Source of the DNA: Candidatus Saccharimonadota bacterium
GTDB lineage: Bacteria; Patescibacteriota; Gracilibacteria; BD1-5; UBA2023
DNA: 32,000 nucleotides
NCBI GenBank assembly: GCA_042852035.1
Contig: BAAFHK010000001.1
Span: 60,001 to 92,000 of the forward strand
Direction of reading: 5' to 3'
The notes under the pieces: generated by a model
What the model was told of the DNA's origin: nothing
The model's input: the letters and a program-made list of their open reading frames with translations, nothing else
The model's database searches: none
Translations under genes and position numbers: made by a program
In this document: piece after piece, positions 121-27,695 of the stretch
How positions within the stretch are numbered: position 1 is the stretch's first letter
Layout of the letters: every line of letters starts with the position of its first letter

Positions 121-151
121 TATAAAAAAGATTCACGATTGGGTGAATCTT
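121..151 (-). terminator. Intrinsic terminator oriented for the minus strand
   Basis: Perfect 9-bp stem AAGATTCAC(128-136)/GTGAATCTT(143-151) with a 6-nt loop. Read on the minus strand, it is followed by a T-run. It lies downstream of minus-strand ORF 580-263. Confidence 0.6.
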
Positions 152-167
152 AGGTTTATACAAGTGA

Positions 168-189
168 AGGCCCGCGCAGTGGCGGGCCT
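168..189 (-). terminator. GC-rich hairpin at the 3' edge of GC-rich island 1
   Basis: 8-bp stem AGGCCCGC/GCGGGCCT around a 6-nt loop. The trailing U-tract is weak. Its composition is unlike the AT-flanked host terminators. Confidence 0.45.
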
Positions 190-262
190 CTTTACCATTC
201 CCTCGTTTCTCCTTTCATTCCTTACTTTCGTAGAAACTTAGGAGAATGGTTGTTGGAGGGGT

Positions 263-580
263 TCAGTGCAGCCGGAGTTTCTTCCGCTTGCTCTTGGCGG
301 CTTCGATGAGGTCATGCGCCGACTGGAAGGGTGACTTTTCGCCGTGGCGACGCTTCACACCGTGTTCTTCCAGCAGGCGCTCTTCCTCTTGCTTGAAGGC
401 AAGAATCGTCGGGGACAACTTCGTCCCCGAGGCGTGATTCTTGTCCAGTTCATAAGCCGTTGCCAAGAGCTTGGTCCAGCGGTCCTTCTTCTGGGCCGAA
501 CGCTTCTGCCGGGCATGCCAGCTTTGGCGCATCCGGTCACCACGGGACCTGTCATTTTCGTGAGTTTGCAGTTGTTGCAT
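263..580 (-). CDS. Hypothetical basic 105-aa protein on GC-rich island 1 (standard-code ORF ending in TGA)
   Basis: Uninterrupted ATG..TGA ORF (MQQLQTHENDRSRGDRMRQSWHARQKR...). A strong Shine-Dalgarno GAGGAGGGG (complement of 583-591) lies just upstream of the ATG. Codon third positions are G/C-biased. The other overlapping ORFs in the island look like GC-rich artefacts. No family recognised. Confidence 0.6.
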   Translation of the reverse strand: MQQLQTHENDRSRGDRMRQSWHARQKRSAQKKDRWTKLLATAYELDKNHASGTKLSPTILAFKQEEERLLEEHGVKRRHGEKSPFQSAHDLIEAAKSKRKKLRLH

Positions 581-656
581 TTCCCCTCCTCAAGGGAATA
601 GGTCAAATAATGAACTGGCGCCCCACGGCACCATCATCCTATTAAATGACACCTGT

Positions 657-707
657 AGTCTATCGCTTCTCTAGTTTCTTGTCAAACAAATTTTCTCATT
701 TTATATA
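657..707. promoter_or_regulatory. Divergent promoter pair sharing a palindromic -35 (TTGTCAA/TTGACAA)
   Basis: Plus strand: TTGTCA(679-684)-N17-TATATA(702-707), pointing toward sodB. Minus strand: TTGACA(685-680)-N17-TAGACT(662-657), pointing toward ORF 580-263. Confidence 0.5.
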
Positions 708-6969: not shown

Positions 6970-8607
6970 CTATAATTCCATATCTTTTTCCTCTAGATGA
7001 GCAATAACTTTCGTAAGCTCAGTAACCATAGATTTAAATATTTCTTGCCCTGTCGATTTGAGAGCAATTTGTGGGAGAAATCTCTGATTTAACAGAGAAT
7101 CGCGAACTTCCTCGATTTTTCGTATCAAGTTTTTTCTTTCGTGTTCGAGCATTCCATCTCATCGGACTTTTATGCGATATTCCGCCTCTTTCATCATGAC
7201 TTCATAGCGGATTTTTTTAAGCTCAAGTATAAGTGAGAGTATGTGTCGAACTCCGAGTTTTCCTATAGCCCCTTTTCTTTGGGAGCGATGTTGTTTCATG
7301 CTCTTGGTGAAGCTCTCTATGACTCCCTTTATTCTATGAAATGGTGCACCAATTTCAGGGATTTTTCAGAGTTCTTCATGGTATCTTTCAATGATTCGTA
7401 TAAATTCTTTTAGGCGATGTGTTTGCTCTCCTTTGAGATTTTCAGTTTCGTCTACTTTATTTGGATCAAACCCATCAAGTAGGGCATTAAGTTCAGGAAT
7501 TTCTCGAATTACCTCTTCATAAAAGCGTTCGAAAGCACTGCGTGCTTGTCTTTCAGAATCCCTGATCCACTCTGCCTGCCCTAGGATTCCATTTCTTTTT
7601 CCAATTTTTTCTTCTATAGCTCGAATCATATCATTACAGGCTCAAATGAGTCGAAGCTTATCTTGTTCAGGATGTTGGAATCGTATCTTTTGTATTCTGT
7701 CTTCTCTTGCTCTTCGTTCGTGGTATCAGGTTTTGCCTTTGAGTTCTTTTTCAAGAACAGCAAGATCCTGTCTCTTTTTATCATCGTCATAATCTTTTCT
7801 TTGCCATCGCAAGATGATTGCTGGTATATCGTCATCGCGAATTCTTTTGAGATTTTTGAGCTTTCTCTCAAGACCGACTTTAGCATGACGCTGACTTCTC
7901 AAGAGGCTATAGTGGTCTTTATAAAATTTCGGAATAATTCTTCGCCTCATACTTCGTCGTTTTTTCTCACGATCACTTTCGATTTCATTTATTTCTTGAA
8001 AGACTATATATCCACCAAAATGTGGATTTTTTTCGTCACTCACACGAGCAATGCGACCTGTTGTACTTTTTCATCAAAGCTTGAGCGGAGCAAGTGCTTT
8101 AAGAAGATTTTTAATATTGGGAATGAGTTGGATTTTTTTCGAAATTTTTTGAGAAGTTGGAAGTCAGTCTTTCTCTTCCTCACTCATGAGTCCGAGACTG
8201 ACAAGAAAATCATCAGAGAGGTATTCAGGCTGAATTACAATCGCTTCGATAAAATCTTCATATGAAGTTTGAGTTTCAATTTTTTGCTTCGGGATTCTAT
8301 AGTCTTTTGGAAGAGAGAAGGCTCTGAGAGCAAAGAAGGGGATCGCATGGCGGAGTTCGCGAGCCATATATTCTTCTCTTCGTGCATCATCAATAGGTCG
8401 GATATCTTTGGTAATCCCTGCCTGTTCTCGCAAGTCTCTCTGTGCATCGAGAGATCGAGTAATCTCACGTACGGTAGGTTCAAGTTCAGTAAGTCTTGCC
8501 ACTTCTTTTATTGCCCATGCCTTTAATCGAGCATTTCATTGCTCTATCTTGTCTTGCAATTCTGGAAGGGTCTCGAATCCGACGAGTATGGAAGCATCTC
8601 ATTTCAT
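6970..8607 (-). CDS. Large charged, predicted coiled-coil hypothetical protein (545 aa)
   Basis: Four standard-code fragments (6970-7152, 7366-7629, 7726-8043, 8164-8502) share one frame. All gaps were checked: 9 TGA and no TAA/TAG. Very rich in K/R/E. No family recognised. Confidence 0.75.
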
Positions 8608-8729
8608 AAGAATATACTACTATTTTTTTTATATTGTAAAGGTAATTATTGACGAAATATATATTTGTAGGGTATATATTGAAATGAATTGACAGATTTA
8701 TTTTAAAATTTAAAATCCATGTGTTTTTT

Positions 8730-9194
8730 ATGGAAAATGTACAAAAGAGGAATCTCTCAAACCCATACAATACGTTCAGCACTATTTGTGAAACCTTCTC
8801 TCGTAGAGAAGGTATAGAAAGGAGATATTGATCTCTTCTTTTTCCCAGCCGATATGCGCCAGATATCTCTGGACTCGCACAGATTATAGCAAGAGGTCTG
8901 GATGGAAGATCGGGACCAGTAAGTATCGAGTTAACAACAATCTCAAGCAAAGTACAGAGGCGAATTGATGAGGTAGTGACTCAAATGTTAAGCTCAAAAA
9001 GAAGAATAAATCTCGCAACGAGAGATGGTGTAGATCAATGGAACGCTAAACACTGAATTTTTTATCCGAACTCTCTCTGAGAGCTTGAATATGTTCTTGC
9101 AATGAACGAAGGGGTTATGGTTCACTGAAGTATTCCTGATGTGATTTTTATTTCAGATGCTCTTTCTGAAAAGTATGAATGATTCCCAAAGTAA
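8730..9194 (+). CDS. Hypothetical protein (154 aa)
   Basis: MENVQKRNLSNPYNTF...GRSGPVSIELTT...WNAKH-G-IFYPNSL... 5 in-frame TGA, verified line by line. Tandem TTGACG/TTGACA promoters lie upstream at about 8662-8716. Confidence 0.65.
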
Positions 9195-9210
9195 AAAAGA
9201 GGAAATATTA

Positions 9211-9238
9211 TTGACATAGTTTATATAATATATATTAT
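9211..9238 (+). promoter_or_regulatory. Host-type promoter immediately upstream of GC-rich island 2
   Basis: TTGACA(9211-9216), then 16 nt, then TATTAT(9233-9238), in AT-rich sequence. The only downstream plus-strand ORF is 9278-9886. Confidence 0.5.
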
Positions 9239-9277
9239 ATACTTCACTTATCCAGGACTTGCACACGTCGTGCGAGA

Positions 9278-9886
9278 ATGGAAAGTACAACCACAGGAGC
9301 CAGCATGTCCCCATTTGAATCGTTGTTCGACCAAGGCCAAGGTCCCCAAGAGCTCGAATCCCTCTTCGAGATGCTTCAGGGCATCGAAGGACTCGAATCC
9401 CTCATCCGCAACCAGGGCCGTCCCAAGAAGCTCGACCTGGTCGACGCAACCATCAGCATCGCCATGATGATGATGGTTGATGTGCCCAAGGAAGTAATCC
9501 GGGATTCGCAGCTCAAGTCTGGCATCAGCCAGTTGAAGAGCGAACTGGAGTCTGCAGTGCAGGCCCACCTCGCACCGCTCGAGACGCTCGCCAAGGCCGC
9601 CGCCGATCGGCACAATCGTGCCCTCATCGCGCGGCTTGCGAAGCGGAAGCTCTCGCCCGAGGGTCTCCTCGAGCAGTGCACGCCGCGACTCGCGCTCGCA
9701 GTCGAAGCGTTCCGTCGTGAACTGGCCGAAGCACGCGCCGAACAGGCGATGTGCTACGCAGACTACTGCCACGGCGAACTCAGGACCATCGAGGCCGAGG
9801 CTCGGAAGCGTCACCATCGCTCGACGGCTCGCCGAGCAGGTGCTGCGGCCCGCCGGGTCAAGCAGAAGGTGCCGCCGAAAGGCTGA
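9278..9886 (+). CDS. Hypothetical 202-aa protein on GC-rich island 2 (standard-code ORF ending in TGA)
   Basis: MESTTTGASMSPFESLFDQGQGPQELESLFEML..NQGRPKKLDLVDA..., followed by an Ala/Arg/Glu-rich helical tail. Clear G/C third-position bias in this frame only. The overlapping ORFs (255 aa on the minus strand, among others) look like GC artefacts. No SD and no family recognised. Confidence 0.6.
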   Translation: MESTTTGASMSPFESLFDQGQGPQELESLFEMLQGIEGLESLIRNQGRPKKLDLVDATISIAMMMMVDVPKEVIRDSQLKSGISQLKSELESAVQAHLAPLETLAKAAADRHNRALIARLAKRKLSPEGLLEQCTPRLALAVEAFRRELAEARAEQAMCYADYCHGELRTIEAEARKRHHRSTARRAGAAARRVKQKVPPKG

Positions 9887-9925
9887 TGCATCAACAATGG
9901 GGCTCATGAGGCTCCTCACACAAGG

Positions 9926-9948
9926 CCGCCCTCGGGCGGACTTTTCTT
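9926..9948 (+). terminator. GC-rich hairpin plus T-tract at the 3' end of island 2
   Basis: CCGCC-CTCG-GGCGG, followed by ACTTTTCTTT. Confidence 0.5.
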
Positions 9949-9951
9949 TAT

Positions 9952-9983
9952 AAAAAAACCCTCTTTTAGAGGGATTTATTTTT
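9952..9983. terminator. Bidirectional host terminator (thrS 3' end)
   Basis: AAAAAAACCCTC-TTTTA-GAGGGATTTATTTTT. The thrS stop codon lies in the loop. Confidence 0.7.
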
Positions 9984-11864
9984 GATTTCTTCTCCGATTC
10001 TTCTTTCGAAGTCATCGATATATTCGGTCGTTTGAGTTTTTGTCTTAAAATTTCGTACCGCGAGACTGCTTGATTTCATCTCTTGTTCTCCGACGACAAG
10101 AATATAGTTTACATGATCTGTTTCAGCATTTCTAATCTTTTTCCCGAGAGAGTCTGACGAGTCATCAACGCTAACGCGAATATTCGTATCAAGAAGATTT
10201 TTCTTTACAGCATAACCATATTCTACGAACGCTTCACCCACTGGGATGACACGAACTTGCTCTGGAGCAAGCCAGAGAGGGAAAACTCCAGCGAAGTGTT
10301 CGATCATGATTCCCATAAATCGTTCAAGGCTTCCTGAAATGGCACGATGAATCACGACAGGTTGTTCATCTTCCCCTTGTTCATTTTTAAATGAGAGTCC
10401 AAATCGGTTTGGCTGATTAAAATCACACTGTATAGTCGCAAGTTGCCACTCTCGTCCGATAGCATCCTTGAACATGAAGTCAAGTTTGGGTCCATAGAAA
10501 GCTGCCTCACCTGGCATTGGTCGATAGTTCAGACCATTGGCGATTGCTGCATCTTCGAGGGCTTTTTCTGCGATTTCCCAGACGCTATTGTCTCAGAGGT
10601 ATTTTTCTGGAGTACTCATATCACGGATAGAAAGTGATACCCAGTATCCATCCATAAGTCCAAAAGTCGTATAGAATTCTTTAATAATATTTACAATTGT
10701 GGAAACTTCATCTTTGATCTGACTGACACGACAAAACAGATGTCCATCATCTTGAGTGATAGATCTCACACGAGTGAGTCCTGAAAGTTGTCCAGTTTTT
10801 TCATCACGGTAGACGGTTGCTGGTTCGAAATAGCGGATAGGCATATCACGGTATGAGAACTGATTATCCGCGAAAAGTTGCATATGGTGAGGACAGTTCA
10901 TTGGCTTCAAAAAGAAGTTCTCCTTCGAAGTTCCACCATACACTGAGAACATATCTTCGAGGTATTTTCCGGCATGTCCTGAAGTTTGATAGAGTTCTTC
11001 TTTCGCGAGGTGAGGGGTCCAGACTCGGTGGTATCCTTTATCAGCATGTAGGCTCCAGAGATAATCTTCTATTGCCTTTCTCATGATCATTCCTTTTGGT
11101 TGAATGAGTGGAAGCCCAGAACCAACAAGATCAGAAACCGTGAAAAGTTTCATCTTCTTTCCGAGGATTCGATGATCACGTTTTTTTGCTTCCTCCATCA
11201 TTGTCTTATAGGCATCAAGCTCAGTTCCAGTCTCGAAAGCAAGACCATAAATACGAGTGAGTTGTTTGTTTTTTGCATCTCCTCTCCAGTAAGCTCCTGC
11301 GAGTTTATCGAGGGAAAATGAGTCTTCAGAAATCTCATTTGTATTTATTACATGAGGCCCCTGGCACATATCGATAAAAGTCGAAGTACGGAAATCGAAA
11401 TTGGTTTTTCCTTGATTTTCACCTACAACGGATCGACCATTTGTATCTTCGATAGCATAGGAGTCAGGATTATTTAAAAACTCAAATCCTTCATATGCAG
11501 GGTTATGGAACTTTCCGATATTTGCAAAAAATGAAATCGTAGTTTCACCCTTCTTCTCAAGATCCTCAATCATTTCGAGTTTATAAGTTTCACCAAGAGT
11601 GGAGACAAGAGTTTTTGCATCATTTACTGAGAGTGAAAATTGCTTAAATTCCTGACCCTCACGAACAATGGCTTTCATTTTTTTCTCGATATCTTTGAGT
11701 TTGCTTTCTTCGAGTGTTGATTCTCCGAAATCGATATCATAGTACCAACCATTATCGACATCTGGTCCGATAGCGAGTTTCGCATTGGCGCCCATAACCA
11801 TGCGAGTGGCTTGTGCCATGATGTGAGAGAGGGAGTGACGGCGAGTAGAGAGAGGGAGTGACAT
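9966..11864 (-). CDS. thrS: Threonyl-tRNA synthetase (632 aa), no N-terminal TGS domain
   Basis: Starts MSLPLSTRRHSLSHIMAQATRMV..AIGPDVDNGWYYDIDF, which is the editing-domain HxxxH region. Class II core FLKPMNCPHHMQLF..RYFEPATVYRDE..GLTRVRSITQDDGHLF. One in-frame TGA (10593-10595) joins the two track ORFs. Confidence 0.95.
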
Positions 11865-23676: not shown

Positions 23677-23923
<247 letters not shown>

Positions 23924-26819: not shown

Positions 26820-27695
26820 ATGCTTCAGGAATGGTATGCTGCATATAAATCAAATGTTGATGAGGCTATAGAAGAGTATTTTATAAAACGTTATGCAGTA
26901 GTATCACGCTCGCCAGAAGAAAAACGTTTTGAGGAAGCTCTTCGATACGCGGTAATGACTCCAGGAAAACGCCTTCGTCCAATTCTCGCGATGATTGCCT
27001 ATGAAGAGTTTGCTGAAATTTCAGGGGATAGGGTTCTTCCATACTTTATAGGACTTGAAATGATACATGCATATTCGCTTGTACATGATGATCTTCCGGT
27101 AATAGATAATGATGAACTTCGCCGTGGTCAGCCGACAGTGTGGAAGAGGTATGATGAGGCAACTGCTATACTTGTTGGTGATGCTCTTCAGATAATGGGT
27201 ATCGAATGTCTTGCACAATCGGATAACATAAAAGTTATTGTTGAAATCTCATGGGCCATCGGAGATATGGGTATGGTTCGAGGACAGATTCGTGATGTTA
27301 TGATTGATGCCACATCTCTCAATCAAGATGAAATGTTACGACTTCACGATGAAAAAACAGGTCGCCTCATCTCTTCTTCTTTGATTATTTGAGCTTTAAC
27401 TGCTTGAGTTTATGAAGGTCAAATGTTTGATCGATTAAGGTTATTTTGAATTTTGCTTGGTCGCGCCTTTCAGATTCGAGATGATATTCTCGATTATGAA
27501 GGTCAAATAGAAAGTCTAGGGAAAGCGGTAGGAAAAGATATTGCTAATAAGAAGGGGGTTGTATCGTATATGGGAATAGATAGAACAAAAAAATTGCTTC
27601 AAGATCTTGAACATGAACTTATTGATATCGCAAAATCCTTTCATACCTCAAAATTTATAGATATCGTCGAATATGTTCTTAGAAGAGAAAAATAG
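26820..27695 (+). CDS. Polyprenyl (farnesyl/geranylgeranyl) diphosphate synthase (291 aa)
   Basis: HAYSLVHDDLPVIDNDELRRG (first DDxxD region) and GRAFQIRDDILD (second). 3 in-frame TGA codons join track ORFs 26820-27392 and 27453-27695. Confidence 0.9.

Follow-up and report, generated by a model that had tools for sequence, protein, structure and literature searches.

In Staphylococcus aureus, a pyrimidine-rich anti-Shine-Dalgarno segment in the untranslated region at the 3′ end (3′ UTR) of the icaR mRNA pairs with the Shine-Dalgarno (SD) sequence of the same transcript (PMC3868564). The mRNAs of the type I toxin systems hok/Sok and aapA1/IsoA1 are stable primary transcripts in which a 5′-3′ interaction hides the SD sequence until the 3′ end has been processed (PMC9841398, PMC6733600), and in the hbs mRNA of Bacillus subtilis a 14-bp interaction of the 5′ UTR with the 3′ UTR governs RNase access and stability (PMC5737220). 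Here, a related architecture is proposed for island 2, a GC-rich block of about 700 bp in a window (the whole 32-kb stretch of DNA that was analyzed) from the metagenome-assembled genome (MAG) HHAS10 of Ca. Altimarinota (class JAEDAM01). This organism stems from activated sludge, where it is attached to the proteobacterium Zoogloea, and it reads UGA as glycine. We consider it moderately probable that the mRNA of island 2 is stable, masks itself from translation and encodes an orphan helical protein which evolves fast. The boundaries of the unit, its conservation and synteny, selection at the protein level, a folding excess beyond composition and codon usage and the SD/anti-SD helix (in both families, that of island 2, termed family 2, and that of a second cassette, island 1) were computed.

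In 300-nt windows the GC content of the block ranges from 0.58 to 0.67 (about 63% for the whole block), compared with about 0.38 in the background, and at 50-nt resolution the increase is seen at about 9250 and the decrease at about 9950. Only two stretches of the window reach at least 52% GC, namely 221-640 and 9261-9960. Windowed GC thus confirms the sharply bounded island of about 700 bp which the original prediction had placed at 9245-9950, and the promoter and the separate GC hairpin terminator (stem plus T-run) that it had named are both present. It did not see that the GC-rich block equals a transcript, that this RNA is extremely folded and that a predicted 5′-3′ helix lies over the ribosome-binding site. 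The unit and its surroundings on the thrS side comprise the following features, including the open reading frame (ORF):

9211-9238, plus strand: sigma-70-type promoter, TTGACA (9211-9216), 16-nt spacer and TATTAT (9233-9238), with 11 of 12 consensus positions
9245-9952, plus strand: putative primary transcript, coextensive with the GC-rich block
9246-9286, plus strand: 5′-terminal stem-loop of the minimum free energy (MFE) structure, base strands CUUAUCC and GGAAAG
9295-9299, plus strand: SD sequence AGGAG, 5 nt upstream of the ATG at 9305
9305-9886, plus strand: ORF of 193 codons plus TGA (9884-9886), encoding an orphan, mostly helical protein
9353-9403, plus strand: 12-mer CTCGAATCCCTC in two copies (9353-9364 and 9392-9403), by which LESL is encoded twice in the N-terminal region
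9897-9916, plus strand: anti-start/anti-SD segment of the 3′ UTR, predicted to pair with the SD sequence and AUG
9922-9950, plus strand: intrinsic terminator, stem CCGCCC/GGGCGG (9926-9939), then ACTTTTCTTT
9959-9973, unstranded: terminator hairpin CCCTCTTTTAGAGGG that works in both directions, having a T-run on either strand; it serves thrS and lies outside the cassette
9966-11864, minus strand: thrS, 632 aa with one in-frame TGA, convergent with the cassette

The putative transcription start at about 9245 coincides with the beginning of the GC block. TTGACT/TATAAT-like promoters are found at the equivalent place in the related contigs L001, L003, L004, L006 and L011, the motifs of the 5′ stem-loop (cttatc, GCAC-loop-GTGC and ggaaag) align over seven lineages, and L004 and L005 contain an almost identical GCCGCCCTCGGGCGGC terminator. 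Judged from the modeled structure, the 5′-terminal stem-loop is probably a stability element of the 5′ end. The thrS hairpin lies 10-20 nt past the cassette terminator, so that a pair of hairpins insulates the converging units from each other.

The 202-aa ORF which had been predicted at 9278-9886 on the plus strand exists, beside overlapping ORFs in other frames, and the GC contents at its three codon positions (0.68/0.45/0.73) exhibit coding periodicity. Its translation is 100% identical to a part of the NCBI protein HHAS10_00590, which is encoded on a contig of 750 kb. The start at 9278 did not hold, as this ATG is in frame but has no SD sequence, and the AGGAG at 9295-9299 serves the second ATG; judged from the sequence, 9305 is the more likely start codon. 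Of the LESL-encoding 12-mer, both noted copies are real and the second one lies at 9392 as stated, but the first one begins at 9353 and not at 9352. This repeat (repeat family D3) had no match in any of 100 shuffles.

Folding of the RNA 9245-9952 yielded an MFE of -313.2 kcal/mol with 68% of the bases paired. The corresponding z-score is -6.4 against dinucleotide shuffles, -6.6 against shuffles within 60-nt blocks, which keep the local composition, and -3.5 against synonymous-codon shuffles, which keep the protein, the codon usage and the UTRs. Six homologous transcripts gave z-scores of -2.1 to -4.4, compared with -1.4 to +0.6 for six coding segments of ordinary genes (the windows used for homologue folds, duplex energies and SD counts were offset by 2-3 nt, with the same outcome). 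A search of Rfam at the gathering score and at permissive E-values assigned no family, the best match in the island having an E-value of 0.63.

Within this structure a 17-bp helix is predicted in which the SD sequence and AUG are paired with the 30 nt following the TGA. The pairs are 9295-9301 (AGGAGCC) with 9910-9916, 9304-9307 (CAUG) with 9905-9908 and 9309-9314 with 9897-9902, and their probabilities range from 0.87 to 1.0. Independent MFE folds contained an equivalent pairing of SD and 3′ UTR in seven of eight transcripts (window, L001, L002, L003, L004, L011 and island 1), with the partner segment within the 0-32 nt that follow the stop codon. The energy of the 5′/3′ duplex is -26.1 kcal/mol in the window and ranges from -11.8 to -26.1, whereas 25 ordinary genes of the window have a mean of -8.0. 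In addition, the partners covary, being AGGAGCC/GGCUCCU in the window, AGGAGACC/GGUCUCCU in L004 and GGAGAAUUA/UGAUUCUCC in L003.

Another cassette, island 1, had been noted about 9 kb away. It is real and similar in style, and its parts on the minus strand are:

128-685, minus strand: island 1, sister cassette of the same architecture, encoding an unrelated 105-aa basic, hydrophilic protein
685-657, minus strand: promoter
633-616, minus strand: 5′ hairpin
591-583, minus strand: SD sequence GAGGAGGGG
580-263, minus strand: ORF, with its TGA at 265-263
261-255, minus strand: anti-SD CCCCTCC
195-170 and 151-128, minus strand: 3′ hairpins

For island 1 the fold z-scores are -8.6 (block shuffles) and -5.6 (synonymous shuffles). 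Its SD sequence is predicted to pair with CCCCUCC right after the TGA, and CAUUCCC of the 5′ UTR with GGGAAUG of the 3′ UTR; in the consensus fold, the 5′ UTR, SD sequence and start are paired with the stop and the 3′ UTR. Located between sod and recG, the cassette is syntenic with its counterparts in L012, L014 and L015, the last of which is an independent assembly that reproduces island 1 together with both flanks.

A unit of this kind, in which a consensus promoter and a 5′ stem-loop precede an SD sequence, a 193-codon ORF and a terminator, would work as follows. The GC-richness would belong to the transcript, and at least part of it would serve the exceptional base-pairing. Pairing of the SD sequence and AUG with the 30 nt directly behind the ORF would enclose the whole reading frame in a panhandle, and the finished transcript would be translationally silent and, because of the 5′ stem-loop, the sealed ends and the terminator, presumably long-lived. 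Synthesis of the protein would be limited to the time of transcription or would need the transcript to be opened, for instance by trimming or cleavage of its 3′ end, by a helicase, or by a ribosome that passes the UGA-Gly codon and enters the anti-SD. If this is true, reduced symbionts belonging to the candidate phyla radiation (CPR) with few transcription factors control a group of fast-evolving orphan genes by the architecture of whole mRNAs, and GC-rich islets in AT-rich CPR genomes mark such transcripts and not foreign DNA. The annotation of such islets, and of gene calls which are mis-extended through TGA, would change.

Two observations concern the 3′ UTR itself. In the window and in L001 the TGA overlaps an ATG (UGAUG), which opens a mini-ORF of 5-7 codons. 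Moreover, the 3′ UTRs of the thrS-adjacent subgroup (L001:3669-3740, L002:645-710 and 9884-9950 of the window) contain a local hairpin, GGAGC-loop-GCUCC, with a copy of the SD sequence and the anti-SD. This hairpin could compete with the long-range SD/anti-SD helix as an ON/OFF switch.

Several points weigh against the self-masking model. All RNA structures are thermodynamic predictions, and the MFE structure of L006 lacks the helix between SD and 3′ UTR. The covariation comes from seven lineages, and for island 1 from three, with a compensatory change in only 5 of 146 pairs. The GC shift touches both C- and G-ending codons. A third cassette (L015:1938-2201), which is described below, is not hyper-structured (z -0.7), so that the high GC content of the class is not accounted for by folding alone. 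Above all, the model leaves unexplained why the frame has a conserved TGA end in an organism with UGA as glycine, and why an SD sequence is found at the cassettes only. These unexplained traits matter more, as they provide a handle on the completeness of stop-codon reassignment and also bear on the fate of ribosomes at such codons and on episymbiont genes which are readable for a host.

Among the described mRNAs, island 2 resembles icaR in that the full transcript is predicted to mask its own ribosome-binding site through the 3′ UTR, a segment complementary to the SD sequence being present in the latter (9910-9916 with 9295-9301). In contrast to icaR, the AUG is also included in the predicted helix, which begins 0-32 nt behind the stop codon, and strong structure extends over the entire coding sequence. 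Moreover, the protein has no relation to IcaR, and the organism is an SD-less patescibacterium with UGA as glycine. The hbs mRNA likewise encodes a small basic protein and has a strong SD sequence and a structured 5′ UTR. There, however, the helix shields an RNase Y site with the SD sequence remaining free, whereas the helix predicted for island 2 covers both SD and AUG, and there is no homology between the two.

The type I toxin mRNAs share with island 2 the single small gene, the strong promoter of its own and the (here predicted) fold-back over the SD sequence. It is therefore conceivable, although we regard it as unlikely, that island 2 is a toxin module like hok or aapA1, i.e., a fold-back-inhibited mRNA which is silent until 3′ processing and is possibly accompanied by an unseen antisense RNA. 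The long-distance 5′-3′ helix predicted to sequester the SD sequence, the presumably very stable mRNA, the fast-evolving orphan product and the precedents (PMC6733600, PMC9841398) would fit with this idea. The product does not, as it is a hydrophilic, helical protein of 193 aa and not a peptide of less than 60 aa with a transmembrane helix. Its ORF is 3-6 times longer than those of the toxins, to which it has no sequence relationship, and the 105-aa protein of island 1 is hydrophilic as well. Defense and toxin libraries yielded no match. No antisense RNA gene was detected when consensus promoters were sought on the minus strand of 9245-9950, a search from which weak promoters would escape. By analogy, the island 2 mRNA may work like mRNAs of the icaR and hok type, but membership in the type I toxins fails on the size and hydrophobicity of the product, and no consensus antisense promoter was seen.

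The genetic code of the cassettes gives rise to another idea. Ordinary genes of the window exhibit the recoding of this genome, as thrS is a single frame only with TGA as sense and TGA makes up 1.74% of the codons and 24.5% of the Gly codons in 25 ordinary ORFs. An SD core was found in none of the 25 ordinary genes, whose leaders are AT-rich, and upstream of at most one of 15 starts of ordinary genes in relatives (L001, L011, L012 and L015). In contrast, 10 of 10 cassette genes have an SD core. The standard-code look which the original prediction ascribed to the ORF, lacking an in-frame TGA and ending at TGA, was also found here: none of its 10 internal Gly codons is TGA, although this is weak evidence alone (P 0.03-0.06). 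The conserved frames end with TGA in six lineages of family 2 and with TAA in the seventh, and with TGA in all three island-1 lineages. Within the island-1 family there is one 3-nt indel inside the ORF, and indels of 1 and 2 nt start right after the TGA, which argues that the functional frame stops there. The codon endings are shifted too, with C/(C+T) at 0.77 and G/(G+A) at 0.67 compared with 0.24 and 0.33 in ordinary genes.

These properties suggest a class of cassettes, comprising island 2, island 1, the third cassette at the left end of the window, plus several that L004 carries, which are GC-rich, have an SD sequence and no internal TGA, and whose frames end with TGA, TAA or TAG. JAEDAM01 might keep this class readable under standard-code, SD-dependent rules. 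In the radical form of this idea the cassettes would be expressed in a GC-rich host (Zoogloea for HHAS10) after transfer of nucleic acid, which would be a prokaryotic analog of the logic of transfer DNA (T-DNA); in the milder form their proper expression would be restricted to a symbiont state with UGA temporarily acting as a stop. The single assumption of standard-code readability would cover four observations, namely the absence of internal TGA, the conserved terminal TGA which is interchangeable with TAA, the loss of the frame directly behind it, and the SD sequence together with GC-rich codons in a genome whose ordinary genes lack the former. It would also fit with the reported absence of prfB from BD1-5 genomes. 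A search of the supplementary data for prfB, tmRNA (transfer-messenger RNA) and smpB of HHAS10 yielded no information. Nevertheless, we judge the idea to be improbable. No route is known by which RNA or DNA would pass from an episymbiont to its host, the member in L001 belongs to a genome of medium GC content and is not GC-rich, masking of the SD sequence would hamper translation in a host too, and the argument is drawn from sequence throughout. Code-agnostic genes have been described for standard-code phages predicted to infect CPR bacteria with UGA as glycine (PMC10746230), and the cassettes resemble them in having ORFs without in-frame TGA among code-25 bacteria. Those phages are, however, reported to avoid TGA stops too, whereas the chromosomal cassettes end at TGA, and no phage relatives were found.

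Three other accounts of these code and codon properties were set aside. Relic TGA stops as a general feature of the genome do not agree with the in-frame TGAs of the 25 ordinary ORFs, which are evenly spread and fewer in the last tenth. A high GC content at third codon positions (GC3) resulting from a preference for NNC codons only does not agree with the enrichment of G-ending codons. Non-stop or tmRNA-gated (ArfA-like) expression is at odds with the island-1 relatives L012 and L014, whose terminators are preceded by TAG or TAA in frame. In six lineages of family 2 the terminator is reached without a TAA or TAG, for which a rough estimate from stop frequencies gives a chance of about 2.5%.

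According to the original prediction, the cassette was inserted into the locus. A foreign origin would mean that a single-gene cassette was acquired horizontally from a bacterium that is GC-rich and uses the standard code and SD sequences, for example the host Zoogloea, which is a proteobacterium and in physical contact with the organism. The atypical composition and codon usage (GC3 0.75 compared with 0.25-0.48 in ordinary genes), the SD sequence in an SD-less genome and the TGA end would agree with this, and, like an acquired islet, island 2 combines a sharp composition anomaly with a single orphan gene and expression signals of its own. Yet when 1.84 billion representatives were searched exhaustively with HMMER, just eight proteins matched. 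Contigs were recovered for seven of them (the window's own, plus L001-L011 for P0002-P0004 and P0006-P0008), and all of these look TGA-recoded. Searches of genome, metagenome and viral contigs for related loci and tblastn searches against phages and plasmids yielded no loci.

The comparison of the thrS-flanking locus, which had been proposed as a check, found the gene in three relatives. In L001 and L002 it lies tail-to-tail with thrS as in the window, and in L004 a distance of 3 kb separates it from thrS, beyond which VKOR follows, like in the window. As the upstream neighbor in L001 (G6PD and 6-phosphogluconolactonase) is unlike that of the window, synteny is restricted to the thrS side. Among the window, L001 and L004, thrS is 81-86% identical, whereas the protein shares 40-52% with its nearest relatives, which indicates a gene that is inherited and fast-evolving. 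The GC excess recurs in the family (0.63 compared with 0.385 in the window, 0.60 compared with 0.40 in L004 and 0.556 compared with 0.38 in L011), and it is kept although synonymous sites are saturated between the lineages, so that no amelioration as expected of acquired DNA is seen. No repeats bound the block, no integrase, transposase or attC-like site was found, the neighbors are housekeeping genes, and the anomaly is confined to the transcript. Thus, the block is probably a vertically inherited, lineage-restricted, monocistronic gene of JAEDAM01/Altimarinota, the reading as a foreign insert is not supported, and horizontal acquisition is quite improbable. An integron cassette or a miniature inverted-repeat transposable element (MITE) was rejected as well, since bounding repeats are absent.

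It is very improbable that island 2 is a structured non-coding RNA gene with the long ORF as a by-product of its GC-richness. The extreme folding z-scores, the coincidence of the GC island with the transcript, as known for RNA genes in AT-rich genomes, and the UTR framework of island 1, which is kept in L004 with a protein that is not detectably similar, would speak for such a gene. However, differences from the L001 homologue pile up at third codon positions (58/44/97 at positions 1/2/3), and compared with L002 the nonsynonymous rate (dN 0.40) is below the synonymous rate (dS 1.43; dN/dS about 0.28). The ORF stays open over 150-200 codons in seven lineages, the only indel within the island-1 ORFs is 3 nt long, the SD sequence is correctly spaced and no Rfam family applies. 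A confident AlphaFold model, with a predicted local distance difference test score (pLDDT) of 82.6, was obtained from just eight sequences. The ORF with its own promoter and terminator is therefore really protein-coding, as originally proposed.

In the AlphaFold model, helices span residues 69-114, 128-169 and 173-189, the first two of which form a 45-residue helical hairpin. The C-terminal helix is basic, and the N-terminus is acidic and poorly ordered (10-residue pLDDT means of 45-52 up to residue 40). The protein was not assigned to any family in Pfam, PHROGs, NCBIfam and PADLOC, including defense and toxin libraries, and neither a sequence search of the PDB nor Foldseek against PDB and BFVD gave a match at an E-value of 0.001 or better. 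A GRPKK segment, which had been likened to a minor-groove or helix-turn-helix (HTH) arm, is located in the low-confidence N-terminal part, and as no HTH or AT-hook family or fold was matched this assignment is not supported. Considering the modeled basic tail and the long helical hairpin, one might guess that the protein is a nucleic-acid- or ribosome-binding factor.

An assembly chimera, in which a GC-rich fragment of another organism was mis-joined into the MAG, is extremely unlikely despite the sharp composition boundaries and the metagenomic origin, because these boundaries coincide with the AT-rich promoter and the terminator of the unit itself, relatives have the same arrangement on the thrS side, the 1.3-Mb genome was assembled from PacBio HiFi and Illumina data of DRA013531 into three contigs, and island 1 with its flanks recurs in L015. 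For island 2 itself there is no independent contig, as exact look-ups of the 289-, 202- and 193-aa versions of the product retrieved no record.

The first of these versions is the NCBI gene model HHAS10_00590 (9179-10048), whose start lies upstream of the promoter and whose end lies beyond the TGA and both terminators, in antisense thrS. Over-extension under code 25 or 4 affects the public gene models of this family, as observed for 9179-10048 of the window, L001:3024-3740 (P0002) and L003:1333-2004 (P0007), with N-termini that cross the promoter and C-termini that pass the TGA and the terminator. The predicted C-terminus of the protein is ...VKQKVPPKG if TGA is the end, and ...PPKGGCINNGAHEAPH if UGA is read as Gly.

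The third GC-rich cassette (0.62) lies in tandem with island 1 on the minus strand. Its promoter and 5′ UTR are found at 1-125 of the window, with the ATG at about 6-4, and it continues to the left; it corresponds to L015:1850-2330. Its ORF encodes 87 aa including a C..CADWLR motif, and the TGA at which it ends is followed by CTCTCCTCC.

Further cassettes were observed in L004. At the position of island 1 next to recG, L004:899-1162 (minus strand) encodes an 87-aa protein with a TAA end. It has the promoter of island 1, the end of its 5′ UTR (CATTCCCTGAGGAGGGG) and its 3′ UTR (GGGAATG...AAAAGGCCCGCC), while the protein is not detectably similar to that of island 1 (E 0.18), so the RNA framework is better conserved than the ORF. 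Another GC-rich cassette, L004:10330-10740, is located between the family-2 gene and thrS, with a TTGACT/TATAAT promoter, an AAGGAG SD sequence before the second ATG, a TAG end and a terminator of the same GCCGCCTTCGGGCGGC type. Its product of about 82 aa is rich in Ala and Lys and has a histone-H1-like tail (KKKAKPAKKAAKK), and upstream in frame lies the peptide MESTREGEVM, which is similar to MESTTTGASM of the window (9278-9307) through different codons. Finally, L004:5599-6528 is an ORF with a fatty-acid-desaturase domain and a GC content of 0.51 (islands reach up to 0.62) in a recoded contig of 40% GC. It has no in-frame TGA and ends at TGA, and its C-terminal half looks frameshifted or of low complexity.

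Upstream of island 2 lie two ORFs without a Pfam match, one at 8649-9194 on the plus strand (181 aa, six TGAs) and one at 6970-8607 on the minus strand (545 aa, nine TGAs). The sole Rfam or ARAGORN match in the 32-kb window is a tRNA-Gln(UUG) at 23729-23803. Some ordinary starts, for example those of thrS and of the ORF at 26820, are preceded by the motif ttcacct.

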